DNA from: a virus | Lineage: Duplodnaviria > Heunggongvirae > Uroviricota > Caudoviricetes | DNA: 47,099 nucleotides | Strand: one strand, 5' to 3' | Virus record (IMG/VR): IMGVR_UViG_2534681604_000006 | Location: 1-47,099 of that record | The notes under the pieces: model-generated | The model's database searches: none | What the model was told of the DNA's origin: nothing | Seen by the model: only the letters and a program-made list of their open reading frames with translations | Made by a program: the position numbers and the translations under genes | Shown: piece by piece, positions 3,640-47,099 of the stretch | How the letters are laid out: each line of letters opens with the position of its first letter | Numbering within the stretch: the first letter of the stretch is position 1

Positions 3640-4170
3640 ATGAAGTACCCAACAGTTATTGTCAATGGTGTGTCCGTTCGTGTTGATGAGGATGGACGCT
3701 ACAACTTAAACGATCTCCATGCAGCAGCAGTTGCAAATGGAGAGGCTACAGAGCAACAGCGCCCAAGCCAGTTTTTGCGTAGCGCGCAGATAAAACGCTT
3801 CATAAAAGCACTGGAGGCCAAAGTGCAAAAAAGCACTTTGGAACAAATTCAGCCACTTAAAATAATCAAAGGTGGTGCAGAACCAGGTGTGTGGGATGTT
3901 GAACTTCTGGCAATCAGATATGCAGCATGGATTAAGCCGGAATTTGAAATCGAAGTTTATGAAGTTTTCAAAACGGTTGTCCGTCTCGGCGTTGGCGCAA
4001 TGTCCCGTCTGAATAGAATCGATCACATCATCAATACTGAAACCAAAGCGATAAGCCAGTGCGCAAGCCAAATGGCTAAGTGGGGCGTTGGTGGGCGAAA
4101 AAGATTGCTTCATGTTGCACGTGAGAGAGCGGCAAATGAAGTGCAAATGTATTTGCCCGGAATGGTGTGA
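3640..4170 (+). CDS. KilA-N domain protein
   Basis: N-terminal pattern YNLNDLHAAA...PSQFLRSAQ...GVWDVELLAIRYAAWIKPEFE typical of KilA-N/APSES-type DNA-binding domains. Confidence 0.6.
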   Translation: MKYPTVIVNGVSVRVDEDGRYNLNDLHAAAVANGEATEQQRPSQFLRSAQIKRFIKALEAKVQKSTLEQIQPLKIIKGGAEPGVWDVELLAIRYAAWIKPEFEIEVYEVFKTVVRLGVGAMSRLNRIDHIINTETKAISQCASQMAKWGVGGRKRLLHVARERAANEVQMYLPGMV

Positions 4171-4421
4171 TTTCGCAGGTTAATCCAGTTTTTGCATTAC
4201 GGCAGTACAGCGAAACAACCCAAGCCAGTAAGTGGGGAAATAACACTGGCAGCCACTGAAAGATGAACCTCCTGCCTTATGGCAAAAAAGATTCTTTGTG
4301 GTGGCGGACTGATGGAAAGACATCGGTTATTGCAGAGACCATTCAATGAGTGGTCTCGACAATGGCTTATATCCTGCTAAGAGTGATTAACTGGGTGGCA
4401 AAAGTTCACCACCAACATCAA

Positions 4422-4853
4422 TTAGATTAAATTATTTCGATAAGCAGAATCGATTAGAGCGTTCATAAAGAGATACTCAACATCTTCGGTATAGTCGATG
4501 TCTATTGGAGCTGTTGAGTCAAGCGCCCCAAAATGCATGCAATTGTTCCAATCAAGAAAAATTTTATGAAACTCCTGTTTTTTTCCATCTCGCGATGTGT
4601 AAAAAGTAATAACCCCAATTAATGAGCCTTCGTGAAGTGAAAGCTTACTTTCTGTAAAACACTTAAAGCGTAGCTGTGGAATTGAAACCTCAAGCTCTCC
4701 ATCATTTAGCTCTATGGAAATTTGCTTATTAAGGTCTCGTTTGTTATTCCATGCGGTGTTAACACGTTCTAATAAATCATTCGTATTTTGCTGTAATAAC
4801 TCACCTTTCCTAGAAAGTAACTGTGACAATCCGATAAACGTTAATGAGCTCAT
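4422..4853 (-). CDS. Hypothetical protein, antisense AT-rich moron between the lysis genes and terminase
   Basis: 143 aa from ATG at 4853 with AAGGTGA RBS; opposite strand to all flanking phage genes; visibly AT-rich; no recognisable domain. Confidence 0.6.
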   Translation of the reverse strand: MSSLTFIGLSQLLSRKGELLQQNTNDLLERVNTAWNNKRDLNKQISIELNDGELEVSIPQLRFKCFTESKLSLHEGSLIGVITFYTSRDGKKQEFHKIFLDWNNCMHFGALDSTAPIDIDYTEDVEYLFMNALIDSAYRNNLI

Positions 4854-4873
4854 AAATTCACCTTTGAGAAAAA

Positions 4874-5425
4874 ATGGCACTCACAGACAAGCAAGAGATG
4901 TTCTGTCGCGAGTACCTCATCGATTTAAACGCCACGCAAGCGGCTATTCGGGCGGGGTACAGCGCAAAAACAGCCAACCGTACCGCATCCGAAAACCTGT
5001 CAAAACCTGACATCAAGTTAAGAATCGCCGAACTGAAAGCGCAACGCAATGATCTTGTTGGTATTAATGCAGAATATGTACTTAATCGCCTTATTGAAAT
5101 CGACCAGATGGATGTGCTTGACATTCTCCTGCAAAACGGTGAGCTAAAACCCATTAAAGACTGGCCTAAGGTATGGCGCACAACGTTATCAGGAATGGAT
5201 GTCGTGGAGATGGCATCCGCAGATAGCGCCGCACTCCTGAAGAAAATCAAATGGCCTGATAAGGTTAAAAACCTCGAACTTCTTGGTAAGCATGTTTCTG
5301 TTCAGGCGTTTAAAGACAACGTCAAAAATGAAGTGACTGGCGCTGATGGAGGACCAGTCAGAACAGAAATTACCAACTTAACGCCGGAGCAGGCTGCAGA
5401 GGCGTATAGAAAAATGATGGGCTAA
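4874..5425 (+). CDS. Terminase small subunit
   Basis: 183 aa; N-terminal [34 protein letters not shown] motif typical of Terminase_2-type small subunits; immediately upstream of the large subunit. Confidence 0.8.
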
Positions 5426-5427
5426 GT

Positions 5428-7050
5428 ATGCCGTTACCATTCCCCTTCGATTTTAAACATCCTGATTACCAGATGGTTTTTGAATGGCGGATGGAACGCT
5501 TACAGCGCATTCGCCAGAATCCTGAAATATTGCCTGCACTAAAACAGTTTTACCGAACCAATCCGGCTCAGTTCATCATCGACTGGGGCATGACAACGGA
5601 CCCGCGTAATATTGATTATGGCCTGCCGGTGACCATTCCGTTTTTACTCTTCCCTAAGCAGGAGGAGTGGATCCACTGGATTATGGAACGCTGGGGCAAT
5701 CGGGAGAATGGTATTACCGAAAAATCCCGTGAAATGGGGCTCAGTTGGACCGCGATCGGACTGGCCTGCTCGCTTTGTCTCTTCAAGAAAGAAATGGTTA
5801 TCGGTTTCGGCTCCCGTAAAGAGGAATACGTCGACAGCACCGGTGACCCGAAAGCATTGTTCTGGAAGGCGCGCAAGTTCGTGGAAACACTACCTGTAGA
5901 GTTTCGCGGTTCGTGGAGCGAGAAGAAGCACGCGCCATATATGCGTGTTGAGTTTCCTGAAACTGGTGCCGTTATCAAAGGCGAGGCTGGCGATAATATT
6001 GGTCGTGGTGACCGTACCACGCTTTATCTGGTTGATGAGGCTGCATTCCTTCAGCGTCCTCTGCTGATTGATGCGGCGTTGTCACAAACGACGCGTTGCC
6101 GTATTGACCTGAGTTCAGTTAATGGCATGGCGAACCCGTTCGCTCAGAAGCGTCATGGCGGGAAGATACCGGTATTCACATTCCACTGGCGGGATGATCC
6201 TCGCAAGGATGAAGAGTGGTATCGCAGGGAATGCGAGAAAATCGATAATCCGGTGGTGGTGGCACAGGAACTTGATCTGAACTACAGCGCATCAGCGGAA
6301 GGCGTCCTGATTCCATCCGAATGGGTACAGGCTGCCGTTGATGCGCATATCAAACTGGGGATCCAGCCAACAGGCAAACGACTTGGCGCGATGGATGTCG
6401 CCGACGAAGGCAGGGACAAAAATGCCTTTTCCACCCGTCATGGCTTCCTCCTGGAGAATGTGCGGGAATGGTCCGGTGTGGGCAGCGACATTTATCAGTC
6501 CGTCGAGAAGGTTTTCGGCTTTTGCGAACAGGACAACCTCGAAGAGTTTCGCTTTGACGAGGACGGGCTGGGCGCTGGCGTTCGCGGCGATGCACGCGCT
6601 ATCAACGAACTGCGTAACGCTGCGCGCCGACCGTCAATACTCGCCACACCGTTTCGAGGTAGTGGCGCGGTATTTGATCCGGATGATGAAGCTGTTCGCG
6701 GGGACAACGGGCAAGCCGCACGTCTTAACAAGGACTTCTTCGCTAACGCCAAAGCCCAGAGCTGGTGGCGGTTACGTAAACTTTTTCAGAATACCTGGCG
6801 CGCCGTGGTTGAAGGTATGGCTTACAACCCGGACGAAATCATCTCAATCAGCAGTAGCATGGCACTCAAAGATAAACTCATCATCGAGCTTTCGCAGCCG
6901 ACCTATTCCATTAATAGTGTGGGAAAAATCGTTATTGATAAACAGCCTGATGGAACCCGGTCGCCAAACCTTGCCGACTCGGTGATGATCAACTATGCCC
7001 CAATGAATTCAGCCCTGAACATCTGGGAGCTGCTAGGGAGACAGGCCTGA
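5428..7050 (+). CDS. Terminase large subunit
   Basis: 540 aa, ATPase plus nuclease organisation, placed between the small subunit and portal. Confidence 0.85.
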
Positions 7051-33074: not shown

Positions 33075-33120
33075 ATTCGTAATGCGAAGGTCGTAGGTTC
33101 GACTCCTATTATCGGCACCA
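33075..33120 (+). other. 46-nt copy of the tRNA-Thr(CGU) 3' end, anticodon loop to CCA (prophage attR; attachment site used by the downstream island)
   Basis: ATTCGTAATGCGAAGGTCGTAGGTTCGACTCCTATTATCGGCACCA folds as the 3' two-thirds of a tRNA; the 5' part is absent, so this is not a functional tRNA gene. Confidence 0.75.
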
Positions 33121-33727
33121 TCAAGAAAATCAATAACTTAGCTTAACTTCTCTAAGAAATTGTATCTTCTGTTATCACTTACAAACGCCTATACGTTGTT
33201 ATGGGCTTTGGTAGTGTAACACGTATGGGCGAGTAGTTCACAGGCTCAACCTCGTAACAAGTTCCTTTGAAGCTGGAAGACGTGCCACCGTCTCTAAACC
33301 TTCTACCAAAACTCTTAGCAAGATGTTCCACACCTGGCGCGGTGTCCAATGATGCTACACGTCGTGAGACGTTGCAGAGGATAAACAGGCTAAATGATGG
33401 GAAGAGTTTTAAGTGCAATAGTGGATCAAAGCCCACCTCTTCAAAACCTAACTTGATCGGGAAAGAATCAAGCTCTAGCACGGTTTCGTCCACCGGAGTA
33501 CAACGGGTGCCTGATAAGAGAAGAACTGCTAAGACTTCATAGCTTTTGTGAAAAAGCCCTTTTTAGTGGATACGCCTACGGCGCTTATTTTTTGGGATAG
33601 CCCATCAAAGGCGCTTTATGGCTCCTATTGTCTTGAAAATGTATCTTTACTTGTATTGTGTTTTATGCGTAGTCTCCCTGTGTAGTATGTAACTTGTTAA
33701 TTTTCATATGAATACAGAGGTAACACG

Positions 33728-33886
33728 ATGAAAAACATTGCAGCTATCAAACGTAATAACCGCAAGATTCACGCTCGTAAGTTCCTGTCTACGCCAGAAG
33801 GAAAAGCCTGGCTAGAGCGTAAACAGAGAGAGAACGAAGAAAGAAAACTCCTTAGTGAGTTGAAATGGCTTAGAGAGGATTTCTGA
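33728..33886 (+). CDS. Small basic hypothetical protein (52 aa)
   Basis: ATG at 33728 preceded by GAGG; below the 60-aa cutoff of the ORF track. Confidence 0.3.
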   Translation: MKNIAAIKRNNRKIHARKFLSTPEGKAWLERKQRENEERKLLSELKWLREDF

Positions 33887-34177
33887 AAATCTCCAGAACG
33901 CAACAGGACGCATTCTAACGCTGTTTTCATTGCTTGGTATAGGGATGTATAGGTGATGTGTGTTTAATGCGTCTGTGAGCTTGTTTTGTGCCTTATTTTG
34001 CATTTTCATAATGCAGGAGAGAACACGGAAAACCTTAAAATTAATTATTGGGGTATTTAAGGCTATTTTCAGGTTATTTAAGGGTATTAAACTTGATTTA
34101 ATTGATTAAAATATAAACAGATAATTATGTATCTTATTGATTTATAAGGTTATTTTTAAATAAAGGTAAATAAAAAA

Positions 34178-34227
34178 TAAATAGCCATAAATAGCTATAA
34201 ATACGTCTAAATACATCTAAATACCTA
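34178..34227. repeat. Five tandem 10-bp iteron-like repeats
   Basis: AAATAGCCAT AAATAGCTAT AAATACGTCT AAATACATCT AAATACCTAT, one helical turn apart. Confidence 0.7.
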
Positions 34228-34703
34228 TATCCCTTCCTTATGGCTAGATTGCGAGAGGTGCTTAACGCGATTTTCAGCGCCCCCCGATCTGGAAAATCCA
34301 GAATCCCCAAATATCAGCAAGGAATTTTCTTGCGTAATCAACATCGTTTTTACCTATTAAATCATTACACAGAAAGCCTTTCTGTAATGTCTCTCACTAA
34401 ACTTTCACTAAACACGAGAATGATCGGTTTTATGTCGGATCAGATGCTAGAAACAGCACCACGTCTCACAAGGGCTGTAAGCGATGAAACCAGTGTTTAT
34501 GCGGGTACAGGTCAAAATATAGGCCAAAATCCATTTAACATAATAATCGTAATATGCACTAAGGAACACATAGAACGCCTTGAATTGATGTATCAGGGGA
34601 AAAGTGATGGATTTTTTACGTAGGAGCACGAAAGGGCTTCTATTGACTTTTGTATGTTATGAAATATAATTAAAGGTTTTTTTGTTTTTATCGTGTGATG
34701 TAG

Positions 34704-35150
34704 TGGATTACACAGGGGAATAGATTAAATGGTGTTCTGTTTATACAGGTTTATTTGTTAGATCAACAATTTGGCATTTCTAAACAGATGTTTGAACGTT
34801 GCCAAATGCCTTGACAACACAAGAAAAGGGCTTGCTATGCCACGCATTACACGAAATAAGGCTGTAAAAACAAAATAAATTTTAAAATTTGCACAAACGA
34901 GAGAACTCATTAAGAAACAAGCAGAACAATTTTTAGCCAACAATTTCTGATGGTGCTCTGTAAGCCGCATTACACAAGGCTTTGCGAAAGTGATGTAAAA
35001 GTGAAGAAAGTAAGAATTGCACTTTTAAGCTACTTTTCATTGAATTTTTTAGTATGGAATTACACAGGGAATAGAGAGCATTATTCTATGATTTACACAG
35101 GGAATATAGGGGGATTATGGCACACACATAGAAAGGCATTACACAGAGTG
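34704..35150. repeat. Dispersed ATTACACAGGG(AATA) direct repeats, at least six copies
   Basis: GGATTACACAGGGGAATAG, CATTACACGAAATAAGG, CATTACACAAGG, GGAATTACACAGGGAATAGAG, GATTTACACAGGGAATATAGG, GCATTACACAGAG. Confidence 0.5.
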
Positions 35151-35191
35151 CTATGTGACAAATGGATGTAACGAGAGGTTACATTCAGCTA

Positions 35192-35326
35192 CCCCCACAG
35201 AATTCTGTTAATCTTAACTTTTAAAGAGATTTTTACCCTAACAAAATTCTGTTACCCCACCCTAACAGAATTCTGTTAGACACCCCCACAGAAAACTGTT
35301 AGACACCCCCACAGAATTCTGTTACC
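35192..35326. repeat. Array of five direct repeats each containing the palindrome ACAGAATTCTGT
   Basis: Palindrome copies at 35197, 35241, 35265, 35288 and 35311, the last four at about 23-bp spacing, each flanked by CCC(C/T)...TTA(G)ACA. Confidence 0.7.
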
Positions 35327-36542
35327 TATTAGATCATTTATTAAATTACTTATTAAATTATAATATTATATATTTATTTATATGATCTTTTGCCTTCCGG
35401 CGTTAGCTTCACTCTCTGGCAAGCAGCCTTACTCCGCTACCTTTGGGCTTCGTGGCTGGCCCGTTCCGCTCACACCGAAAGCAAAGCGTTACTTTCTTCG
35501 TGTAACTTCGTTGGCGGTAACGCCCACGAAGAAATACTATTGCGCTGTGCGCAGTAAGAGTAATCACCTAACCAATCATACTGATTGCTTACGTGTTAAC
35601 TCTCTCTAACTCTTAATTACCCTCCTACATTTAATAACTCTGTTATTCTCTGTAGTTGTGTAATTACTCGAAGAGAGAGCGGCTAAAGCTCAATTACACT
35701 CTGCTTTCCTCGTGTAATTTCACTAAGCCTCAATACAATTTCACTTCCTACATTCTGTAGTCGTGTAATTGTTTTCGGTGGAAAAGCCAGAGGCGACACC
35801 GAAAGAGAATTCTGATCTTATTAATCTTATCTATCTTAGTTAATCTTCTTACTTATCTTACTTACTTTATCTACTTTATTATTAATAATAGCTTTATAAG
35901 CTCTGTGTAGCTCTCTGACGCAAGAAACAGCATTCAGGAAGGGAATCACCTTAGAAAAGTGTTCTTTGCGTCATAATGTGTTTTATGAAGGATTCAGAGG
36001 TGTTTCATAACAGGAGTGTATAGAGGATACTTTAGGTAATTAAAAATAAGGGGTCTAAATGCTTCTCTAACAGCATTAAGCAGGGTAGGGAATGGAAACG
36101 CATTGCCTACACATATAAGCTCACTACAGAGCTTTACAGAGCGTTTTATAAAGTGACTCTCTATCTTATATCTACCATCACCTTTTCATATACCTAACAA
36201 ATACAAAATAAGCCCCTTAAATAAGCCTCTGGCGAGCTAAACAACCTCTACATAAGAGAATGTATTGCTTTTATCAAAACTTCGTTAGAACGCGTTTTAG
36301 AGCGTTTTAGACAATAATGAAGAATAGCACTACACAGAAGAGCACGAATAGCTAAGAAAAAATGTAAGTGCATGAAAAAGATCAGTTTTTTTATGGAAAG
36401 GTATTGACAAATGTTTCTTTATATGTAATAATAGGTATTAGAGGGACAGAAAAACATTCTTCTCTAAATAATCAAAATCAATGCACTTTGAAGCCGTCAG
36501 GCTTGCAAGGTGTTTTTCTTTTAACTGAATAAGGAGTTTTTT

Positions 36543-36731
36543 ATGAAATGGTTTACCCCGGAGCACGTCATCTCGGCATTTAAAAAAGGTGAGCTTACAC
36601 GCCATCAAGTAGTAATGAATCGTAATATGGCAAGGAGTCGAGGTTATCCAGAGCGAGCAGCTTGCTTCAATGAAGCACTCAAGATTATTGATGAACTAAG
36701 AAAAAATGAAAAAGAATCTGAAACAGAGTAA
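36543..36731 (+). CDS. Hypothetical small protein, first gene of the island operon
   Basis: 62 aa; strong RBS AAGGAG 8 nt upstream. Confidence 0.55.
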   Translation: MKWFTPEHVISAFKKGELTRHQVVMNRNMARSRGYPERAACFNEALKIIDELRKNEKESETE

Positions 36732-36750
36732 AGAATAGAAGGAGAAAACT

Positions 36751-36918
36751 ATGAGCGAAACTAAGAAACCAATTCCGCGCACTTACCTACACGTTGACCC
36801 TGAAATCTTCAAGGTTTTATTTGCTGAAGCCAAGAAAAGGCAAATTATGGTCAGTGATTTGATGTTAGAAATCATTACTGAAGCAGCAGAGAACATCAAA
36901 CAAAAAAAGGGTAAGTGA
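36751..36918 (+). CDS. Ribbon-helix-helix-like small DNA-binding protein (55 aa)
   Basis: ATG at 36751 with RBS GAAGGAG; N-terminal beta-strand-like RTYLHVDPEIFKV followed by helices; not in the ORF track because it is under 60 aa. Confidence 0.5.
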   Translation: MSETKKPIPRTYLHVDPEIFKVLFAEAKKRQIMVSDLMLEIITEAAENIKQKKGK

Positions 36919-36969
36919 TCCTCATTCACTTTAGTAGCGCATTAAGCGTGATTTATAAGGAGATTTTTA

Positions 36970-37623
36970 ATGATTAATGAAGAACAATTTGTAAAAGTTC
37001 CTATGTGGATTCTAAAAATAAGCCAAGTAAACGGGCATAAATTTACAGATAGTGCTAAAAACCTTTACTGCTATCTGAAAGGGTTTGATCGTGCATTTCC
37101 CTCTTACGCTAAGATAGGCGATGTTTTTGGCATAACACCAAGAGCAGCAGAGGAAAGGGTTAAGAAATTGCTCGAAATGGGATTAATTATAAAAGATGCA
37201 CGACCAGGAAGTTCTAATGTCTATCAAGTGGTAGATATTCCACAAGAAGAAGCTAGACAAGAAGCCAAGACACAACAAGAAGCTACTGTTAAAGCTGTTC
37301 CTGATCAGCTTCCCCCTACGGAAGATAATAAACAGCCTTCTTTTGATGTTCTTGATGATTGGGATGCGCCTTTGCCGTGGGAGACGGAAGAAACACCTGT
37401 TTCATCAAATGAAAAGGTAGCTAATGATAATGAGGAGGATGTGTTAGAGAATTTTGCCTCTCTTATCATCCGGGAGAAACACAGAAGAACAGGAGGATCA
37501 TCATTTATAGACTTTGCAAATTCACTAGCTTATAGACACGGGCTAAAACGACCAAATGGTATTGAGGCATATTTTGCTAAGAAACATCCCAAAGTATATG
37601 AAGACTTTGATATTCCATTTTAA
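36970..37623 (+). CDS. HTH-domain protein, putative replication initiator/organiser
   Basis: 217 aa; N-terminal winged-HTH-like region (KNLYCYLKGFDRAFPSYAKIGDVFGITPRAAEERVKKLLEMGLI), acidic linker, basic C-terminus; RBS AAGGAG. Confidence 0.55.
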   Translation: MINEEQFVKVPMWILKISQVNGHKFTDSAKNLYCYLKGFDRAFPSYAKIGDVFGITPRAAEERVKKLLEMGLIIKDARPGSSNVYQVVDIPQEEARQEAKTQQEATVKAVPDQLPPTEDNKQPSFDVLDDWDAPLPWETEETPVSSNEKVANDNEEDVLENFASLIIREKHRRTGGSSFIDFANSLAYRHGLKRPNGIEAYFAKKHPKVYEDFDIPF

Positions 37624-37634
37624 TAAGGAGGGTT

Positions 37635-37913
37635 ATGATTCAATATTTAGTAAAAAATCAAGTAGACAGAATTCAGTGTAATGACACAGGAAAACGCATC
37701 TATGAAACACTTGCTTACCTCTATAAAGGAAAGCCAACACCGCTAAAATATAGCGATGTGTTACATCGAGCAGGGTGCTCTGAAGATGGTTTAAAATTCT
37801 GGCTTAGACAGCTATCAAATTTCGGTGTTATAGAGATTAAAGAATTATCTTTCTCTACATTCAATCTCAAAAGACTGGATAAAGAAATAGACTTCATCTA
37901 TTCCACTCTCTAA
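37635..37913 (+). CDS. Hypothetical protein
   Basis: 92 aa; RBS AAGGAGGG. Confidence 0.55.
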   Translation: MIQYLVKNQVDRIQCNDTGKRIYETLAYLYKGKPTPLKYSDVLHRAGCSEDGLKFWLRQLSNFGVIEIKELSFSTFNLKRLDKEIDFIYSTL

Positions 37914-38045
37914 AATCTCTCTATGTAATTAAAATATAAAAGGAAAACATTATTATGGTAATAGCTATGTGGTGGTTGTTGTTTTTTATGCTCGTAGAAA
38001 CATACTTCGGGGTGTTTTCCTTTAAAAGAAAAGGAAAAGTAAATA

Positions 38046-38456
38046 ATGGCAAAAAGAAAAAACAACGTTGTTAAGAAGATCGGTGATTCAGCTTCTCTTC
38101 TAAGTAAACCTAAATCTATTCTAAGACGCAAAGACTTTAAAGAGCTAGTTACGCTCACCAAGCAAAATAGCGCCCCTGGCGAATGGAAAACAGAGATTAT
38201 AGAACATTCTCCCTCTGTGCCTTGCGGAGATGAATTTAACGCCTTACAAGAAATCTTATCTTCAACACCTGGCGTATTCTGGAAACCTAGAAAAAGAAAA
38301 GAGTATATCGTTGATAGCTCTGATTTGCGCAAATACCAGATTTTAGGATTTGAAGATTATAATCACTACGTCGGTTATCTCGCCACCAATGGCCTAAATA
38401 ATTTAGTTCCTGAATTCCAAATTTTAGATAATGCTGATCACTATGGAGACTTTTAA
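38046..38456 (+). CDS. Hypothetical protein with basic N-terminus
   Basis: 136 aa; RBS present. Confidence 0.55.
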   Translation: MAKRKNNVVKKIGDSASLLSKPKSILRRKDFKELVTLTKQNSAPGEWKTEIIEHSPSVPCGDEFNALQEILSSTPGVFWKPRKRKEYIVDSSDLRKYQILGFEDYNHYVGYLATNGLNNLVPEFQILDNADHYGDF

Positions 38457-38457
38457 T

Positions 38458-38796
38458 ATGAACAAAAACACGTATGACACAATTTATTCACTAATTAATT
38501 ATTATGAGGATGATTACCTCCTGCCTTTAAACCGCGCTGAACTTGAAGCATACAAAGAAAACACGCCAGCGGCACTAAATGAGGCGTTTAAACACTGGGA
38601 TTTAGCTGTGAATGCCTTTGAGCACCTCTCTAAGCGTGTAGAGATGCTCTGTAAGCGTGAGAACGCATATCTAACAGCGGATCAGCTATTTGAGCTATCA
38701 AACTGGATAGAAGATATTGAATCGGACGTTCGCTATGTGGGAGATGGCCTTATTGAACTAGCTCAACGCTTAGGCGCTGCTATCACAGAAGAATAA
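38458..38796 (+). CDS. Hypothetical protein
   Basis: ATG at 38458 with GGAGA RBS, directly after the upstream stop; ORF track lists 38431 as an upstream alternative. Confidence 0.5.
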   Translation: MNKNTYDTIYSLINYYEDDYLLPLNRAELEAYKENTPAALNEAFKHWDLAVNAFEHLSKRVEMLCKRENAYLTADQLFELSNWIEDIESDVRYVGDGLIELAQRLGAAITEE

Positions 38797-39128
38797 AAAA
38801 AGCAACAAAAAAGTTGTAAAATATCTTGACATTTCATCTATTGTATGTTAATATAATTATATAGGGTGATTATTTTTCCTTTATTGGTTCGATATTAAAA
38901 ATTCTTCTTGTCGTTAAAGGGGAGTAAAATCTCCGCTCCCCGCTTCTCCTCCTTAAGTAAATACTGTGTCATTATTACCTCTTTTTTCCTTTGTTATGCA
39001 TACATCTTGGAGTGTGCATAACATAGGGTAATTACAAAGGCGGCTTTAAATGCTGCCTTTTATTTTGCCCGTTATGCAACTTAAAAGTTGTATTTCTTAC
39101 TTTAAACAAGGTAACAAGGTTTATATAA

Positions 39129-39341
39129 ATGTTGTTTTTAAACGATAAAGAGCAAATCATCAAGTATAAAGATGAAATGCTGAAAATTAATCCACAAATT
39201 ACCGAAATGGTAGCTAAATACGCTGGGTGTTCTGTCGAGGAAGTAGAACGATGTGTTGAAAAATATTTTTCTCCTTCTTCTCCGTCTACACCTTCCATTA
39301 ATGAATTAATCAAATTAAAAGCTAAGGAGATTACTAAATGA
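39129..39341 (+). CDS. Hypothetical small protein
   Basis: 70 aa; stop overlaps the next start. Confidence 0.45.
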   Translation: MLFLNDKEQIIKYKDEMLKINPQITEMVAKYAGCSVEEVERCVEKYFSPSSPSTPSINELIKLKAKEITK

Positions 39342-39700
39342 TTATTGATTTAGACACTCTGTTTCCAGTCCGAAAGACTTTCACAGATATTGTAAGTTAT
39401 TGTACTGATCCGTTTGCCTCTGTAGAAAGCAAGGTTTTTGCTTCTCTTCCTGCTGATGTTGAATGCGGCGACTTGATCACCAGCACTGGCGCTAAATATG
39501 TATCAGGAGATGATATCTATGTTGTTATGAGTGAATTTGTAACGGCTGGAGAAAACAAGCCTGTAGATGTTTTACGTAGCAATGCTGGCCTTGTATGCAT
39601 TAAAGCTGATGCGCTGAATGCTGTAAGTGAAGCAGCAAAAACAGCCTTAATTAAAAAAGGCTTCCAGCTTGAAGGCTTCCACTCTGTTTTCACTTCTTAA
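39338..39700 (+). CDS. Hypothetical protein
   Basis: 120 aa; RBS AAGGAG. Confidence 0.55.
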   Translation: MIIDLDTLFPVRKTFTDIVSYCTDPFASVESKVFASLPADVECGDLITSTGAKYVSGDDIYVVMSEFVTAGENKPVDVLRSNAGLVCIKADALNAVSEAAKTALIKKGFQLEGFHSVFTS

Positions 39701-39718
39701 TAAAAGGAATAATAATAA

Positions 39719-40747
39719 ATGATTCTAGGTAATGATTACGTTGATTTAGCTCCTCTGTTCTCTGCGCATAGCACTAGAAACTATCTGCTTTCTACTCTCG
39801 ACTTCACTGATCCGGTGGGCGTTAGTTCTCATAAAGTAGCTGTTTCCCAGCTTGTCGAAAGCAACGAATCTCTCTTTAACAAAGAGACAAGCCGTTTTAG
39901 TTCTGAACACAACGTTACTAAGCGAGAACAAGGTAAAGAATGGCTGATCGAAATCCCGTATTTTCTTCGTGAAGATGTGATCCGTCCTTCTGATGTTCAA
40001 GGCAAACGTAAGCCTGGCACTGATTTCCAGGAAACACTCACTGATATCTATGCGGAATATATCGCTAAACACAATGTTGCATTCCAGCGTACAAAAGAGA
40101 GCGTATTGGCTGCTTCTTTGTTCTCTGGCAAAACTTACACGCCTAAAACTGATGATGTTCTTATCGAATGGGGCAAGCTGTTTAACGTATCAGCTATGAA
40201 AGCCACGGTTAACGCTTCCAGCACTGACACCACGAAGATTTTTAAAGAATTTGATCAGATTGCTACTAACATTTTTGAAATCACACAAAGCCAGGCGTCG
40301 GCGGTAGAACGCATTGTTGTTTTCTGTAAACCTGACGCCTTCTCTGCAATTCGATTCTCTGCTGGTATGGCAAACGCATTCCAGTATGTAAGCCCACTGG
40401 AAGAGGGGAATGTTGTGTACCAGCGTCGTGACCTGCTACCAGGAGTGACAGCGTTCACTATTCCAGGAACTAACATTGATGTTGTTAAACTGGTAGATCC
40501 GCTACATCTGGCACATATGACCGCAGACGCTGTAGCGATTCCGAAGTTTGCTAAAGGCTCTAACGTCTACCAGGCCATCTATGGGGCGGCTTCCAGCACC
40601 TTTGAACTGATTAATGCCGCTCCTGCTGAGGTGTATAGCTACAGCTATGAATCTTCTCGTGGTGATGCTGTTAACGTTGTTACAGAGAATAGCCAGATGG
40701 TTGTAAACCACGGTGTAGGCTTCTCCGTTCAAATCACTGTTAAATAA
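39719..40747 (+). CDS. Hypothetical 342-aa protein, possibly structural; followed by a strong terminator
   Basis: Largest well-formed ORF in the middle of the operon; RBS AAAGGA; no motif recognised with confidence. Confidence 0.6.
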   Translation: MILGNDYVDLAPLFSAHSTRNYLLSTLDFTDPVGVSSHKVAVSQLVESNESLFNKETSRFSSEHNVTKREQGKEWLIEIPYFLREDVIRPSDVQGKRKPGTDFQETLTDIYAEYIAKHNVAFQRTKESVLAASLFSGKTYTPKTDDVLIEWGKLFNVSAMKATVNASSTDTTKIFKEFDQIATNIFEITQSQASAVERIVVFCKPDAFSAIRFSAGMANAFQYVSPLEEGNVVYQRRDLLPGVTAFTIPGTNIDVVKLVDPLHLAHMTADAVAIPKFAKGSNVYQAIYGAASSTFELINAAPAEVYSYSYESSRGDAVNVVTENSQMVVNHGVGFSVQITVK

Positions 40748-40766
40748 TATTTTAACGTGTAATAGA

Positions 40767-40798
40767 GGCGTGGCGTGTATTCACGCTTCGCCTTTTTT
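40767..40798 (+). terminator. Intrinsic terminator after the 342-aa gene
   Basis: Nested GC stems GGCG..GCGTG tatt CACGC..CGCC followed by TTTTTT. Confidence 0.65.
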
Positions 40799-40833
40799 AT
40801 TTATTTTTTTAAATTTTGAGAGGTGATTAAAAT

Positions 40834-41037
40834 ATGGAAGTGATTTTGAAATCAAAAAATGGTGTACACGTACATTTAGATGCTAATGATTCTAGAGGCT
40901 TGTTAAATCTGAAATATCTATGTTCTCTTTTAGATGTTCCCTATGAAGGCGTAAAAGCCCGTATGTTCAGATTAAACGAGAGTATTGATCAAGCTCTGCA
41001 CCATTTCTTAAGTAAAGAAGGTGATAAAAATGATTAA
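40834..41037 (+). CDS. Hypothetical small protein
   Basis: 67 aa; RBS GAGGTGA. Confidence 0.5.
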   Translation: MEVILKSKNGVHVHLDANDSRGLLNLKYLCSLLDVPYEGVKARMFRLNESIDQALHHFLSKEGDKND

Positions 41038-41051
41038 TAAGGGGATTTTAA

Positions 41052-42884
41052 ATGTTAGAAATTAACACTTCTAAAATTAAGAACACAGTAACATTTAGTG
41101 TAGATAAAGACAGCTTGAAAAAAGCGAAAGATTCTATTACAGGCTTAAAGAAACTCGCAGAAAATATCAAGCCCGCTAAATTAAGATTTGATAATGTCAC
41201 TAAAGGCTATAAGAAAGCACAAAACGAAGTAGACAAGATTACCCAGCAAAAAGCCAAAACAGAAAAGCAAAATCAAAGAGCACAAGCTGCCGCAGCAAGA
41301 GCACAGGCAAGGCAACAGCAACAAATAGCAGCACGTAAAGAGAAAGCAGAATTAAAGCTCCTCGATGTGTCAAGCTCTATCAGTGCAATGCACCGCCTCT
41401 CTGTAGCTGAACAATACAAAGCTATTGCACAGGCTAGAGAGATAGCAAAACAATATGAGCAAGGGGCTATCTCGCTTGCACGTATGAATAGCCAGATGAA
41501 ACGCCTACAACAGCAACAACGTAAGATCAATGGCAACAGGAAAGCCCAATTAGCCCCCGTTAAGGGAGGATCAGGGAATGCCGCCACTATGGGCGCTCTG
41601 TTATTTGGAGGCGCTACGGCTGCTGCTGGCGTGATGGCTGTTAGTAAAGCCTCTGAATTTATGGCTAACAGCTTTGCGAATGCTGAAGCCCAAGGGGAGC
41701 TAATTCAACGGGCCAAGCTGGGCGGTGTAGACGTTAACCAGATGTATAATATTACAGAATGGGCGTATAAAAACGGCGTTGACTCTATGATGGGTGATCA
41801 AGGGGCTAGGAAATACCTGGATCAGATGAAAGATGTTAGGGAACGTGCCGCAAAATCCTACAGTGAAGCTGAATTGGTGAAAGATAAGCAAACCGGAAAA
41901 TCTAAATGGAAAGGCGGTGATAACGCTATTAATGAACTTCTAAACATCGGTGTTATTAACAAAAGCGACCTTAAAAAATTTGCTGATAATCCAGCCGGAT
42001 TAATTTCTAAGGCTGTTAATGGAATGATGAAAAAAGGGTTTTCAGACTCCCAAATTGGACAACGTTTAGAAGACCTGGGCGATGATTTGATGCTTACGTC
42101 AAAATATTGGCAACGTTCCGTTAAAGATGTACAAGAAAGTATTAATCAGCAAAAAGCCTCTGGAAAATGGCTAACAGAAACACAGCAAGACTCTATTGTT
42201 AAATTCAGAGAGCTAAACAGACAGCTTTCACAGCTTTCTGATGCAAGACAAGTAGCATTCGTAGACGGCTTTATGAAATCTCTCGATCCAAAAGTAACGG
42301 AAGAGTTTATGAAAAACCTTTCTAATCTCACTCCGTATTTTACGAAGCTGGGCGAAGCGTCTGGAAGTCTCTTTGAGGCCATTATGAAGATTGTAAACTG
42401 GTTTAATCGTAATGATGATAAGACAGATGCTATTCAGAAAAATATGGGAGATGCACCGCCATTAAGCAATGAAGGAATGAAACAGAATCTTTCTAATCTC
42501 GTTCCTGATAAATATAAAGGCGCTGGCACTGCAACAACTACACCTGATAATACTCATTCCCTCTTTAACACAATTAAGGGATGGCTTTTCGATGATAATG
42601 CTTCTTCTGTGTCAGATGTAAAAATGTCAGTTAGTGAAGCACCGATAACCAATCTCAAACAGGGTGCTTTAAATAATCTTGCAATGACAACTCCGGCTTA
42701 TAATTTATCTCCTGTGTTTAACCTGAATCCAACGTTTGAAGTGGTAACAGAAGTTCCTCTTACTATTAATTCTGACACATCAAGATTAAGCGATTATGTG
42801 GATTTTACAGCGAGAGCAAGTCGGGATAGCTTCTTGAAATCATTAACATTAACCAGCTTATCAGGACAATCCAACGGCGGGTAA
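41052..42884 (+). CDS. Large coiled-coil protein with Gly/Ala-rich hydrophobic segment (tape-measure-like or other extended structural protein)
   Basis: 610 aa; Q/A/K-rich heptad-like region (QRAQAAAARAQARQQQQIAARKEKAELK) and GGSGNAATMGALLFGGATAAAGVMAV segment; RBS AAGGGG. Confidence 0.55.
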   Translation: MLEINTSKIKNTVTFSVDKDSLKKAKDSITGLKKLAENIKPAKLRFDNVTKGYKKAQNEVDKITQQKAKTEKQNQRAQAAAARAQARQQQQIAARKEKAELKLLDVSSSISAMHRLSVAEQYKAIAQAREIAKQYEQGAISLARMNSQMKRLQQQQRKINGNRKAQLAPVKGGSGNAATMGALLFGGATAAAGVMAVSKASEFMANSFANAEAQGELIQRAKLGGVDVNQMYNITEWAYKNGVDSMMGDQGARKYLDQMKDVRERAAKSYSEAELVKDKQTGKSKWKGGDNAINELLNIGVINKSDLKKFADNPAGLISKAVNGMMKKGFSDSQIGQRLEDLGDDLMLTSKYWQRSVKDVQESINQQKASGKWLTETQQDSIVKFRELNRQLSQLSDARQVAFVDGFMKSLDPKVTEEFMKNLSNLTPYFTKLGEASGSLFEAIMKIVNWFNRNDDKTDAIQKNMGDAPPLSNEGMKQNLSNLVPDKYKGAGTATTTPDNTHSLFNTIKGWLFDDNASSVSDVKMSVSEAPITNLKQGALNNLAMTTPAYNLSPVFNLNPTFEVVTEVPLTINSDTSRLSDYVDFTARASRDSFLKSLTLTSLSGQSNGG

Positions 42885-42917
42885 TTCCCGCCATAACATT
42901 ACAAGGAAATTATTATT

Positions 42918-43631
42918 ATGGCGACCGCCGGGATTTTAACCATACGTGCAGCAAATACTCCAGAACAACACGTTCAGGCTGTTTACAAAGCAGAACAAGA
43001 TATAAACTCTACAAAAAACGAAAATAGCAAAGCTAATACAACAAAAGGAGAAAATGGATTTGCTATTGTTACCAGTGGGCTGGCATCTTCTGGTAATGAC
43101 GTTTATGAAAATTATATGGCGCTGGCTTTTGACAGTGTAGATGATGTAAACGTGAGACGTTCGGCAGATGTTACAAGCTACCCCGTAGAAAATGGTGCTA
43201 CTGTGTCTGATCACGTTCAAATTAAAAACAATAAATTTTCTCTTAAAGGGCGTATCTCTGAAACACCGATTAAAAGCGATCCTGGCTTGTTAAAGAGTGC
43301 AGGGGTGAACGGGAACAGAAGATCATTAGCTATCGACTACCTGAATCAGATTATGGACAGTAGACAGCCTTTTCTTCTTGTTACAGAAAATAAAACTTTT
43401 GAGAACGTTGTTTTAACAGGCATCGAATACACAGAAGAAGCAAGCGAATCCCTGGTATTTGATCTTAGCTTTGAGCAGATCAGGCTCGTTTCGTATGGCA
43501 CAGTAAACACTGTAGCTATCAAAACACAGCCATCTAAGAACATCGGGGCGAATATGAAAAAACGTGTTAACACTGAAAAATCAAGTAGTGAAGGTGAAGA
43601 TACTATTACGCCTGCCTTTAAGCAGGAATAG
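42918..43631 (+). CDS. Hypothetical protein
   Basis: 237 aa; RBS AAGGA; last gene of the operon. Confidence 0.55.
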   Translation: MATAGILTIRAANTPEQHVQAVYKAEQDINSTKNENSKANTTKGENGFAIVTSGLASSGNDVYENYMALAFDSVDDVNVRRSADVTSYPVENGATVSDHVQIKNNKFSLKGRISETPIKSDPGLLKSAGVNGNRRSLAIDYLNQIMDSRQPFLLVTENKTFENVVLTGIEYTEEASESLVFDLSFEQIRLVSYGTVNTVAIKTQPSKNIGANMKKRVNTEKSSSEGEDTITPAFKQE

Positions 43632-43673
43632 CCGTAAACGCCTCTAAAACGCTCTGTAACGATGTAATTGTAA

Positions 43674-43704
43674 AAGAGGCTACCAATCTATGCTGAAGCC
43701 TCTT
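43674..43704. terminator. Hairpin between the convergent operon and the integrase gene
   Basis: AAGAGGCT (43674-43681) / AGCCTCTT (43697-43704) 8-bp stem with a 15-nt loop. Confidence 0.45.
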
Positions 43705-43712
43705 TATTGCGT

Positions 43713-44990
43713 CTATGGCGTTGTTTTACGCCTTAAATTTGATTTTTTATTGATTGATAAGCCTTTCTCTATTTCAGGGTAGCGTAGAAGCTCAATATAG
43801 TTTTTAAGCTCTACTGGAGAAGCTGCATTCTTGCTATATGTGCGGAATGTCTCTGTATTGCCGCGTGTATGGCCCAGGAGAAGGGCGATCCTGTCTTCTG
43901 GAATTTGATTTCGATCAAGAAGCTGTGCTACTCCGTGTCTCAGAGAATGAAACACCTTCCTTTCTGTTCCCTTTTCCCCTAAAGCCTTTCGTTTAGCTCT
44001 TGTAAATCTCTGCGTGTGCCACGTGGAACGTTTACCATCAGCACGCTCTGTAATGCTGGCGTGATAGAACAAAAAGCCATTATGAGGCTTTTCACGAAGA
44101 GATAACACCAATGGAGTGATAAGGCTATGCACAGGCACAAGACGTGCCGCAGCTTTCGTTTTTCCCTGTGTGATTTCAAAACACAGCACACCTTCGATCT
44201 CTTTCACATCGTCTATTGTGAGACTTGCTATCTCATTGATCCGCATCCCTGTATATAAACCGATAAGACACAAAGCCATCATTTCTTTGTTTTCTGCTGA
44301 ATTACCGGAAAATACTTGCAACACCTGCAATAGCTCTTTGTTAGAAAATGCCTCGTAGCTCTCTCTACTTTGTGCCACATCAAGCCTATGCCCTCGCCAG
44401 GGGGAGAGCGCCCTTTCTGGCGCATCGTGGTAACGTGATGAAGCTAACTCCCATAGCTGGGCCATTGGGCTGATATAATTTGCAATTGATTGTTGTGAAA
44501 GGGTTTTTTGCATGTGTTCTATCCAGCCTGTAACAGTGGTGCGGCTTACATCTTGCAATGCAATATCAGGCTTTTTACGGTAGGAGAGAAACATCTCTAC
44601 CGCTTTTCTTGCCTTAGCTAAAGTGGCTGGCTTCTTCTTCGTGCTGTTAATTGTCAGGTAGATTTCAAGAATTTTAAGCAATGACGGACACGAAGACGCT
44701 GTATCTTGCATTCTGGTAGCTGTTTTGGCGTATTTAGCCTTACTGCGTAACAGTTCCAGCGTGTTCTCTATTGTGCTGTTTACAGGGGCGACACTCTCCC
44801 GTAGACAATGGTATTCATCTGCAATCTGATCACGCTTTCTACGTGCAACACGAAGATTACTTGTATGCAGACTCCTAACAAACGTCCTTTTTCCTTCAAA
44901 AAAGGGCTGCATATACACAGGCAACGTGATCCTCAAATAGTAGTTACCGTAAGAATCACAGATTATGTATTGATTGGGCTTGTATCTCAT
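43713..44990 (-). CDS. int: Tyrosine site-specific integrase
   Basis: C-terminal catalytic motifs (RLVPV..., FHSLRHGVAQLL, LLGHTRGNTETFRTYS); start taken at ATG 44990 with GGGGAG RBS (upstream ATG at 45047 lacks one); adjacent to the att core. Confidence 0.85.
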   Translation of the reverse strand: MRYKPNQYIICDSYGNYYLRITLPVYMQPFFEGKRTFVRSLHTSNLRVARRKRDQIADEYHCLRESVAPVNSTIENTLELLRSKAKYAKTATRMQDTASSCPSLLKILEIYLTINSTKKKPATLAKARKAVEMFLSYRKKPDIALQDVSRTTVTGWIEHMQKTLSQQSIANYISPMAQLWELASSRYHDAPERALSPWRGHRLDVAQSRESYEAFSNKELLQVLQVFSGNSAENKEMMALCLIGLYTGMRINEIASLTIDDVKEIEGVLCFEITQGKTKAAARLVPVHSLITPLVLSLREKPHNGFLFYHASITERADGKRSTWHTQRFTRAKRKALGEKGTERKVFHSLRHGVAQLLDRNQIPEDRIALLLGHTRGNTETFRTYSKNAASPVELKNYIELLRYPEIEKGLSINKKSNLRRKTTP

Positions 44991-45133
44991 AAACTCCCCG
45001 GCTAAAGTGTCGGAGCGTTTGTAATGTGAAAATTGATTGTAACGCATAGAAAATGATGATTTTTTCTATAAGATTCAATCAATTAGTAATGGTCGTAGGT
45101 GATGGCATTAACACGAGATTAATCGAGTGTTTT

Positions 45134-45152
45134 ACTCCTATTATCGGCACCA
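45134..45152. repeat. Right att core direct repeat (19 nt of the tRNA-Thr 3' end) preceded by a degenerate tRNA-like arm
   Basis: ACTCCTATTATCGGCACCA identical to 33102-33120; 45081-45133 resembles the tRNA 3' half with substitutions and an insertion; sequence just right of both cores is also similar (AAATCAATAA). Confidence 0.7.
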
Positions 45153-45237
45153 TTTAAATCAATAAGTTACCCATCATTAGTACCTTCCTTATTTTTTGAC
45201 TGGGACAAATTTGGGACCGATGGGTTCAGGATCGAGT

Positions 45238-45498
45238 CTATTTGCCATGCGTGTTCGGTAAGGTGTTAGGCGCGAGGTGAGCATATCGACGAACCATTTC
45301 GATAGACTCCCAGCCTCCCATTTCCTGTAATACTGACAACGGGACTCCGGCCTGAACCAGCCAACTTGCCCAGGTGTGTCTCAAGTCGTGAAATCTGAAA
45401 TCATCAATACCAGCTCGTCTCAGCGCCGCTTTCCTTGTACACAGATACCCAGCGGTAATGATTTGCAATTCGAAAGAGTTCGTATTTCTCTCCCACAA
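45238..45498 (-). pseudogene. Integrase C-terminal remnant (P4/CP4-type tyrosine recombinase), N-terminus deleted
   Basis: Encodes only ...[42 protein letters not shown]...; no genuine start codon. Confidence 0.6.
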
Positions 45499-45935
45499 AT
45501 ATAAATACTGTTTAAAAAGGGGAGAGAAAACATATTTTAATTATCACCAACGTAAATTATTTTTTGACGTTATTAATAGAAGTGAAGGAATAAATAGGCG
45601 TATTCTACGATTGCAACAAAAACAACGATATTAATCAGTTTATGACTGATTTGTTGTATTTTATTCTCTTTCATTGGTACTTCCTCGCTTTAAAAAAGAG
45701 TGCACTTCGTAAGTGCCTTATATATAAATAGCGAGTTTGGTCAACCAATTTTTTGACATGTATCACAAATTTGAATGGATGTATTACATCAGCCATCTTT
45801 TATAGATAATTAATTCCTTAACGGAAACCAGCCTGTTCCTTTCGATACCTGAATTTGATCCCATAGTTTATCCAGAATGGTTAGTTCAGGAACGCGCTGT
45901 GGATTAAGGGGGGAATTTCATGACTTCTACCTGAT

Positions 45936-46157
45936 TCAGCTAAATGTACCCATCACCAGCCTTTTACCGATCGCCGCAAGTGTCAGCCAGCGGAAAGCGC
46001 ATACGTCATTCGAGTGGTGATTATGGCGGTTAAAGAGAGGAGAAAAGAAATTCTGCAGAAGAAATCCATTCGCGCTATGAAGGTCAACGCTATCAAAACC
46101 TGCTTTAATGGCTCTTTTATGACGTCTTCCGGCTAAAATGATTGTGTCTATAAACAC
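45936..46157 (-). pseudogene. Possible fragment of an Old-Yellow-Enzyme-type NADH:flavin oxidoreductase
   Basis: Short stretch KAGFDSVDLHSANGFLLQNF resembles the OYE active-site region, then similarity is lost. Confidence 0.3.
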
Positions 46158-46166
46158 CCTTCATGA

Positions 46167-47099
<933 letters not shown>

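Follow-up and report, generated by a model that had tools for sequence, protein, structure and literature searches.

What is a single small gene doing on the strand opposite to all of its neighbours, with its start codon only 20 bp from that of the gene for the small terminase subunit (terS)? The question is raised by IMG/VR virus record IMGVR_UViG_2534681604_000006, a stretch of 47,099 nucleotides from a tailed phage (Caudoviricetes) that we call, over its whole length, the window. In it, a 143-codon open reading frame (ORF), orf143, occupies positions 4422 to 4853 of the minus strand. Sequence comparisons indicate that orf143 is a genuine protein-coding gene under purifying selection. They also indicate that it is one allele of a hypervariable, fixed antisense slot beside terS genes of the Terminase_2 family, with at least 39 alternative cargos. 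The slot occurs in temperate phages of Enterobacterales.

The gene and its immediate setting

The locus is laid out as follows (coordinates are those of the window).

4422..4853, minus strand: orf143, coding sequence of a 143-amino-acid (aa) cargo protein, recognised from its translation, from annotation by the Prokaryotic Genome Annotation Pipeline (PGAP) in near-identical genomes, from 143-aa homologues, from the ratio of nonsynonymous to synonymous substitution (dN/dS) and from an AlphaFold2 (AF2) model
4858..4864, minus strand: Shine-Dalgarno (SD) sequence AAGGTGA of orf143, read directly from the sequence, 4 nt before the ATG
4854..4873, no strand: divergent spacer with two ribosome-binding sites back to back, 20 bp, too short for a promoter
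4874..5425, plus strand: terS, small terminase subunit, Terminase_2 (PF03592, E 2.6e-40; phrog_51), the invariable divergent neighbour

The ORF listing of the window gives the minus-strand frame as 4422..4880, which would encode 152 aa if started at a GTG. The 143-aa form begins with the ATG at 4851-4853, which is the start in all close homologues, and ends with the stop codon at 4422-4424; its product reads MSSLTFIGLSQLLSRKGELL...AYRNNLI. On the minus strand the start is preceded by AAAGGTGAATTT-ATG, and homologous loci carry GGAGG or GGAGA at the equivalent SD position. The SD of terS, GAGA at 4866-4869, lies inside the same spacer.

Every flanking phage gene is on the plus strand, namely those for NinB, NinE, NinF, NinG, Q, two tRNAs, holin, lysozyme, Rz, a KilA-N protein, TerS, the large terminase subunit (TerL), the portal, and head and tail proteins. 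The GC content of orf143 is 0.359 (0.333 at third codon positions, GC3), and local GC content is 0.36-0.39 over the ORF versus 0.45-0.55 in the flanks. The original prediction, made from the sequence alone, had described a markedly AT-rich 143-aa ORF with a good ribosome-binding site, encoded against the direction of the flanking phage genes and separated by 20 bp from the start of terS, and all of these traits are present at the locus.

A small family under purifying selection

The orf143 protein is identical to RefSeq entry WP_000097127.1, a 'hypothetical protein'. The exact protein is indexed in 889 sample blocks of an assembly collection, with 385 contigs counted, and is carried by 7 of 5,426 complete E. 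coli genomes. Among 5.8 billion proteins, 15 clusters were recovered at 68-99% identity, all exactly 143 aa long, from Escherichia, Enterobacter, Citrobacter and Klebsiella. Comparison of orf143 with homologues gave dN/dS values of 0.07-0.18 (Nei-Gojobori), with synonymous change saturated in the more distant pairs. A profile search of 1.84 billion representative proteins produced 21 matches, of which 17 were accepted, including the short fragments P0016 (69 aa) and P0022 (38 aa); the four others (P0020, P0031, P0033 and P0034) are repeat proteins and were judged spurious. Full-length members of the family measure 143-148 aa, diverge down to 20% identity, and come from Kosakonia, Pantoea and Citrobacter koseri.

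Among sequenced phages, Cronobacter phage ES2 carries a member of 144 aa, AEM24710.1 (L153:1546-1980), which aligns with the family at an hhalign probability of 99.9% and an E value of 2e-31. When three family members were compared by tblastn with 50,697 phage records, the one record recovered was ES2, and its own protein alone recovered it. AEM24710.1 is labelled 'transcriptional regulator' in GenBank; no match to a helix-turn-helix or other DNA-binding domain supports that name.

Residues M1, F84 and A137 are invariant in the family, and L20, P59, F63 and I143 nearly so. Conserved residues are almost all hydrophobic, and no polar residue is conserved family-wide. The C-terminal tail recurs as ...KKLIS[LIV] or ...NLI. 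The low dN/dS, a length kept at 143-148 aa down to 20% identity and a confident AF2 fold (described below) argue together that the protein is under selection. The original prediction had allowed that the ORF might be spurious, with no conservation in related prophages; the ORF is conserved in them and shows purifying selection, and that possibility falls.

Judged on sequence, orf143 can be classed as a moron-type cargo gene, since it is a real gene with variable occupancy and a deviant composition. Its kind, the moron and the prophage cargo hotspot, is already known, and orf143 is a new member. The family is small, uncharacterised and confined to one hotspot. A literature search that included the accession WP_000097127 returned no paper on the family or on a hotspot at this position, an absence that is not proof, and three cargo accessions were not found in the DefensePredictor supplements.

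Linkage to the start of terS

Close and distant homologues of orf143, down to 20% identity, occupy nine independent contexts, and in all nine the gene is divergent from a Terminase_2 terS or from a 55-75 nt relic of one. The gaps between the two genes are these.

Gap of 20 bp: Citrobacter, Klebsiella and Enterobacter loci, and phage ES2
Gap of 25 bp: Pantoea
Gap of 16 bp: a Joint Genome Institute (JGI) metagenome contig

No neighbour of orf143 besides terS is conserved. Across the family contexts terL has no Pfam match or belongs to Terminase_6 or Terminase_3, and the portal belongs to Phage_portal_3 or DUF4055. Among E. coli contigs with the identical protein, the lysis-side neighbour is a KilA-N gene, Rha/ORF11CD3 or a 50-aa ORF. 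Convergent ORFs of 63-90 aa are present in some homologous loci (L003, L008, L009 and L019) and absent from the window. The terS-orf143 pair is kept in degraded prophages that have no terL (L009, L010 and L163). Thus orf143 is tied to the start of terS and not to the lysis genes.

Amino acid identities between the window and three of these loci differ between the two members of the pair.

Window versus L016: orf143 identity 26%, TerS identity 76%
Window versus L003: orf143 identity 84%, TerS identity 70%
Window versus L008: orf143 identity 68%, TerS identity 82%

The identities of orf143 and TerS are uncorrelated, from which it appears that the genes have been reshuffled relative to each other. 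This pattern argues against specific co-evolution of orf143 and TerS, which we rejected on that ground.

A hypervariable antisense slot

This terS is present at 80-99% nucleotide identity in 374 E. coli genomes, only seven of which carry orf143. Among the matches listed, homology to the window mostly begins at 4866-4874, at the terS ATG or a few bases before it. Related phages hold other antisense genes at the same site, and the description of orf143 as an antisense, AT-rich moron in the original prediction is well borne out by this patchy occupancy. Three alternative occupants illustrate the exchange.

E. coli B and enteropathogenic E. coli (EPEC) E2348/69: antisense cargo is a 182-aa hypothetical protein, WP_000762846.1, with a gap of 19 bp
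18KM2445: antisense cargo is YodC/DUF2158 plus DUF6953, with a gap of 26 bp
Rb-23: antisense cargo is an 81-aa ORF plus a 301-aa LPO_1073/Vpar_1526 protein, with a gap of 21 bp

The gene for WP_000762846.1 lies at L028:1934-2482 and L029:1934-2482 on the minus strand, and its product has no Pfam or PADLOC match; E. coli B represents the BL21 lineage.

The extent of this variation was sampled by scanning IMG/VR with 23 invariant nucleotides from the 5' end of terS, which recovered at least 119 loci. Among the matches listed, 114 loci show, close to the terS ATG, an antisense ORF that is 50 aa or longer. The antisense ORF starts 0-33 nt from that ATG in 95% of the 105 evaluable listed loci, compared with 28% at random positions in the same loci, and the gap between cargo and terS ATG in the listed loci is nearly always 11-33 bp. 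An all-against-all BLASTP comparison divided the 114 cargo proteins of the matches listed into at least 39 unrelated clusters. These clusters recur across contigs with their lengths conserved, and the cargo consists mostly of single small genes of 56-324 aa. The commonest cargos among the matches listed are DUF2158/YodC-like proteins (19 loci), a 111-aa family (10 loci) and a 92-aa membrane protein (10 loci); relatives of orf143 account for 5 of the 114 listed loci. Mean GC content over 100 loci is 0.41 for cargo versus 0.49 for terS.

We scanned 35 cluster representatives against Pfam and PADLOC, a set that leaves out the representative of the orf143 family and three short ORFs. The Pfam domains found were DUF2158, TIR_2, DUF4145, DUF2441 and DUF6173. 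With PADLOC, one representative matched the candidate defence protein PDC-S66 (E 1.6e-109) and another a ThsB-like TIR protein (E 2.5e-44). Six long cargo proteins were separately examined with PADLOC as the source of the PDC-S66 match, and none of them matched. On one IMG/VR contig (3300031417_000260, locus L098) the antisense gene encodes a 324-aa coiled-coil protein with a C-terminal ThsB-like TIR domain and starts 136 nt from terS.

Named phages also bear on the slot. Cronobacter phage phiES15 contains an unannotated antisense ORF of 72 aa (L151:1761-1979, minus strand), 21 bp from terS, that is homologous to an IMG/VR cargo cluster (L051); it is probably a missed gene. Phage vB_EcoM-689R2, in which TerS has a different N-terminus, has an empty gap of 61 bp.

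The 5' end of terS as boundary of the slot

The right-hand side of the slot is formed by coding sequence, and two features of this stretch need to be distinguished.

4874..4969, no strand: conserved 5' end of terS, codons 1-32, right-hand anchor of the slot and putative site of the cargo promoter or leader, delimited by synonymous difference (pS), third-position conservation and relics
4876..4916, minus strand: antisense-specific hairpin of 41 nt, the complement of terS nt 3-43, followed by AUUUUUUCUC, a six-U run in the window

The value of pS is 0.26 in terS codons 1-32 versus 0.71, which is saturated, in the rest of the gene. It was calculated from seven loci picked through homology to orf143, a set that is hence unbiased by terS sequence. 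Third-position conservation, measured in a motif-selected set, is 0.81-0.89 in codons 1-32 versus 0.48-0.64 further on, even at conserved amino acids. Even between loci with cargo proteins of only 25% identity, the 5' stretch of terS is about 95% identical in nucleotides, and the similarity breaks exactly at the terS ATG.

Relics provide a further line of evidence. The first 55-75 nt of this terS are found, in non-coding form, beside the cargo in phages that use another terS. There are five independent junctions of this kind: L014 (C. koseri, 6878-7000), L012 (Kosakonia, 6882-7000), L061, L062 and L065 (which together represent one junction), and L070. Those of L014 and L012 were found through orf143 homology. 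The replacement terS genes beside the relics are of the MAKPDW type, of a P22-gp3-like type and of another type. The L014 relic departs from the consensus at two sites, though it no longer codes. These patterns indicate that the 5' end of terS is constrained at the nucleotide level and travels together with the cargo. In the same C. koseri locus, a run of 15 C residues separates the relic from the ribosome-binding site of family member P0027 (L014:6960-6980), and this run may be an assembly artefact or else a tract subject to phase variation.

The DNA specific to each cassette extends only 12-25 nt before the cargo ATG. Because this is too short for a promoter, the promoter or leader of the cargo would have to sit in the shared terS sequence. 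Two candidate promoter elements, both unproven, can be named there: TTYAAAT at terS nt 50-56, just inside all relic junctions, and an extended -10 element, TGcCATnnT, on the complement of the terS start codon. Another candidate, TTGCGT-17-GGTACT, was set aside; its -35 element is lost in the relic loci.

The hairpin at 4876-4916 has a predicted stability of -19.4 kcal/mol on the antisense strand (z -2.5; 3 of 200 dinucleotide shuffles were as stable), compared with -12.6 kcal/mol (z -1.0) on the sense strand. The commonest sequence variant gives -22 kcal/mol antisense versus -13.7 kcal/mol sense. The sense strand folds less well because three G.U pairs turn into C.A mismatches, and the common polymorphisms at terS nt 11, 17 and 23 fall in the bulge or loop of the hairpin. 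Other loci do not conserve the U-run, and in L012 the hairpin itself has decayed. With its U-run, the structure looks like an intrinsic terminator that ends 10 nt before the cargo SD. It could attenuate expression of the cargo, stabilise the cargo mRNA at its 5' end, insulate against antisense read-through, or belong to terS itself (a pac site or translational control).

Properties and predicted fold of the product

The product of orf143 is a protein of 16 kDa, and the family is mildly acidic (pI 4.7-5.8) and soluble. The original prediction had found no signal peptide or recognisable domain, and neither was detected here. The maximum Kyte-Doolittle hydropathy in a 19-residue window is 0.6 and internal, with no transmembrane or signal-like segment and no Cys near the N-terminus. 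Searches with orf143 gave no match in Pfam (E up to 1), PHROG, NCBIfam or PADLOC, and 20 family members likewise had none in these domain collections (Pfam E up to 0.01). A sequence profile search of the PDB with orf143 returned noise only, with E values above 0.4.

An AF2 model built on a divergent alignment of 20 sequences reached a predicted local distance difference test score (pLDDT) of 90.3 and a predicted template modelling score (pTM) of 0.85, with all five models at 88-90. It replaced a first model from a shallow alignment, in which pLDDT was 78 and the five models disagreed. The predicted fold has an N-terminal helix (residues 6-36), six antiparallel strands (46-108) and a C-terminal helix (125-139). 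As modelled, it is a two-layer alpha/beta sandwich of a generic type that serves in protein-protein binding. A search of BFVD gave a single structural match, to A0A873WDE3 of Burkholderia phage Mana (TM-score 0.76), which was set aside. Since the conserved residues are almost all hydrophobic, binding is suggested rather than catalysis, and orf143 most likely acts as a non-enzymatic binder of a partner protein.

The modelled helix-antiparallel sheet-helix shape is shared with frataxin/CyaY (PF01491) and with sandwiches of the type III secretion chaperone kind, and the resemblance is one of shape only. In frataxin/CyaY an acidic ridge on helix 1 and strand 1 binds iron and IscS; orf143 has no such ridge, no sequence match, and no iron-sulphur (Fe-S) or type III secretion context.

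Known systems of similar architecture

The original prediction had likened the position of orf143 to that of bor in phage lambda, and the comparison broadly holds. Like orf143, bor runs against the late operon in the interval from the lysis genes to the packaging genes, and lambdoid morons such as bor (a concept of Juhala and Hendrix, reviewed in PMC3594210) share with orf143 a deviant AT-rich composition and a patchy presence in close relatives. The exact slot differs, however. The bor gene abuts Rz and encodes an exported lipoprotein, whereas orf143 abuts terS (20 bp) and encodes a product predicted to be soluble and cytoplasmic, with no sequence relation between the two. Furthermore, a classical moron brings its own promoter and terminator, while upstream of orf143 the cassette DNA has too little length to hold a promoter, and no promoter was detected.

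The closest architectural match is the TERi locus of Listeria comK prophages, where a promoter conserved in 96% of prophages is followed by alternating, unrelated small antisense genes (10.1101/2025.02.27.640495). The TERi genes TerI, TerI-80 and TerI-180 are expressed in lysogeny, are non-enzymatic and block DNA packaging (10.1101/2025.02.27.640495). Both loci thus combine a conserved flank with alternating unrelated small antisense cargo. They differ in that TERi belongs to the early lytic module, overlaps a gene on the opposite strand and occurs in another phage group and host, while the slot of orf143 is at terS; similarity in sequence between the two is not expected. TERi has 5 alternative genes, compared with at least 39 in the terS slot, in which no self-immunity genes were identified.

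Tab of Pseudomonas phage JBD26 is a minus-strand moron located between the terminase genes; it is transcribed in the prophage from its own promoter and blocks tail assembly of incoming phages by protein-protein interference (PMC10884400). Tab and orf143 have in common that each is a single small antisense gene amid the packaging or late genes of a prophage. The gene for Tab, with terS on one side and terL on the other, comes with a cognate anti-Tab gene in the late operon, whereas orf143 lies upstream of terS and has no conserved partner gene; there is no evidence of similarity between them in sequence or fold. The defence hotspots of P2 and P4 phages (PMC9122126) resemble the terS slot in their fixed position between conserved phage genes and in the exchange of diverse cargo, defence systems included. 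They occur in different phages and at a different position, and the cargo of the terS slot consists mostly of single small genes; 2 of the 35 representatives scanned match models of known or candidate defence proteins.

Possible roles of orf143

The explanation that we favour, and to which we give an even chance as a whole, is as follows. orf143 is an accessory moron in a fixed antisense slot that begins 11-33 bp before the ATG of a Terminase_2-type terS. On its right the slot is bounded by the initial ~95 nt of this gene, which would serve as a shared recombination anchor, and the same stretch may also carry the promoter or 5' leader for whichever cargo occupies it. The lysogen would make the orf143 protein, which would block competing phage by sequestering a phage or host protein, in the manner of the single-gene morons Tab and TerI. 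Our confidence is high for the reality of the gene, its family, its predicted fold, the architecture of the slot, the diversity of its cargo and the constraint on the 5' end of terS.

Virulence or phage exclusion, which the original prediction named as frequent functions of opposite-strand morons expressed by the lysogen, would apply to orf143 by analogy. A role of orf143 in phage-phage conflict or defence falls somewhat short of an even chance. It is suggested by the rapid turnover of cargo, the AT-richness, the position, the presence of TIR/ThsB-like and PDC-S66 proteins among the alternatives, and the analogues Tab and TERi. A bolder version, which we regard as rather unlikely, makes the first ~60-100 nt of terS a universal docking and expression platform and the slot cargos a reservoir of anti-phage or anti-satellite proteins, in which orf143, with its frataxin-like binder fold, would be a new defence family that sequesters a phage protein. 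By geometry alone, expression of cargo in the lysogen and of terS in the lytic cycle should be mutually exclusive, because the cargo transcript would be antisense to the terS translation start and late transcription runs head-on into it.

Several results weigh against the favoured explanation. PADLOC found no match for 33 of the 35 cargo representatives, so that enrichment in known defence is weak, and PADLOC-DB v2.0.0 gave 0 families for orf143 itself at E values up to 10. A consensus scan of 4100-5500 found no sigma-70 site of at least 9/12 on either strand; the best match under relaxed rules, TTGACA-15-TACGGT (5003-4977), was rejected because it is not conserved. The same interval, together with folding of the 3' region, showed no canonical terminator after orf143. 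Should transcription terminate at the hairpin over the start of terS, expression driven from within terS would be hindered. Finally, a pac site, an element for the translation of terS or homogenisation by recombination could account instead for the conservation of the terS 5' end.

The adjacency of the two genes could alternatively reflect functional coupling, with orf143 as a dedicated partner or modulator of TerS: a packaging regulator, a decoy against TerS-hijacking satellites, or an inhibitor of the TerS of competing phages. The family is found only beside a Terminase_2 terS or its relic, degraded prophages retain the pair, folds of this class are typical of protein binders, and small proteins that target the terminase have precedents in TerI and in the satellite proteins discussed in PMC10884400. 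However, the identities of orf143 and TerS are uncorrelated, and members persist beside a relic where the phage uses a different terS (L012, L014). Furthermore, 38 unrelated families occupy the same site, so the slot itself explains the adjacency, and this coupling has in our view a small chance of being correct. It is improbable that orf143 is a counter-defence or host-takeover gene, for example an inhibitor of a bacterial immune protein that aids the phage in infection or induction. Rapid turnover of alleles would suit an arms race on the offensive side as well, but a gene that runs against the late operon, at a distance from the early promoters, would not be expressed with the lytic programme, and late transcription would collide with it. 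The fold matches are weak, moreover, and no anti-defence family is matched in sequence.

Its place in the genome interval of bor could speak for orf143 as a host-fitness or virulence moron like lambda Bor, or as a mimic of frataxin/CyaY through which Fe-S cluster or IscS-dependent metabolism changes in the lysogen. The absence of a signal peptide, lipobox, transmembrane segment and Bor or frataxin Pfam match speaks against both forms. A Bor-like surface role in virulence is unlikely because the protein is predicted to be soluble and has no signal peptide. The mimic is contradicted by helix 1, in which 3 acidic and 3 basic residues leave no acidic ridge (the balance is the same family-wide), and by identities of 8-12% to frataxins in a sandwich topology that is generic. 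We consider this pair of roles very improbable. The functional product could, lastly, be an antisense RNA over the terS translation start that silences terS in the lysogen, the ORF being incidental or spurious. Any transcript that reaches the ORF must begin inside terS and would be antisense to its initiation region, where the antisense strand also forms a stable hairpin. The dN/dS of 0.07-0.18, the conserved length and the confident fold nevertheless refute the spurious-ORF form, and as a whole this reading is barely credible; an antisense effect added to that of the protein is possible.

Taken alone, orf143 is one more hypothetical prophage gene, and it is the setting that gives it value. 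The slot is precisely defined and easily searched for as an antisense gene starting ~20 bp from a conserved terS start. A sample of little more than a hundred viral contigs has already yielded at least 39 unrelated small families, including one TIR protein and one candidate defence gene. Hotspots fixed in this way have proved fruitful for new anti-phage mechanisms in P2/P4 phages and in prophages of Listeria. The terS slot is a likely source of new phage-conflict genes. Its geometry also poses a regulatory question: the expression of cargo and of terS must interfere, since the cargo transcript would begin inside terS. The alternative 182-aa cargo in E. coli B/BL21 and in EPEC E2348/69 makes the slot experimentally accessible.

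Left flank of the cassette and other observations

On the lysis side, two further features delimit the cassette.

4378..4421, minus strand: 3' tail of the cassette, where the DNA specific to this cargo ends on the left; homology of the flank to other prophages stops at 4377
4300..4377, plus strand: left flank, left boundary of the cassette, non-coding, 78 nt, ~98.7% identity in ~640 E. coli genomes

The ~640 genomes that share 4300-4377 have prophages with other packaging modules, including Shiga toxin 1 (Stx1) prophages with an HNH/P27-type module. The 3' tail contains a weak hairpin at 4394-4413 with no U-run; its folding energy of -13 kcal/mol (z -0.8) is not significant, and on these two grounds it was ruled out as a terminator. 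A search of 4200-5200 against Rfam gave no match.

Between Rz and the cargo, a KilA-N gene (PF04383, E 2e-17) is located at 3640-4170. In strain SCU-301 KilA-N is absent and the orf143-terS pair is the same, and another locus has Rha/ORF11CD3 in its place. From these replacements it follows that the lysis-side flank of orf143 is itself mosaic. Further upstream, genes for tRNA-Asn(GTT) and tRNA-Thr(TGT) lie at 2015-2170 between Q and holin, the position at which Stx phages carry tRNAs and stx.

The gene at L028:4678-5436 in E. coli B is a truncated portal-like gene that PGAP names 'anti-CBASS protein Acb1 family protein'; in other genomes it is DUF1073. The naming of this one gene family thus looks inconsistent. 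At the far end, 33075-47099 of the window matches chromosomal DNA common to other E. coli strains, with the fimbrial genes ecpC/ecpD, an integrase gene and, in some strains, vat; given this resemblance, the tail end of the prophage and its junction with the chromosome may fall inside the window.

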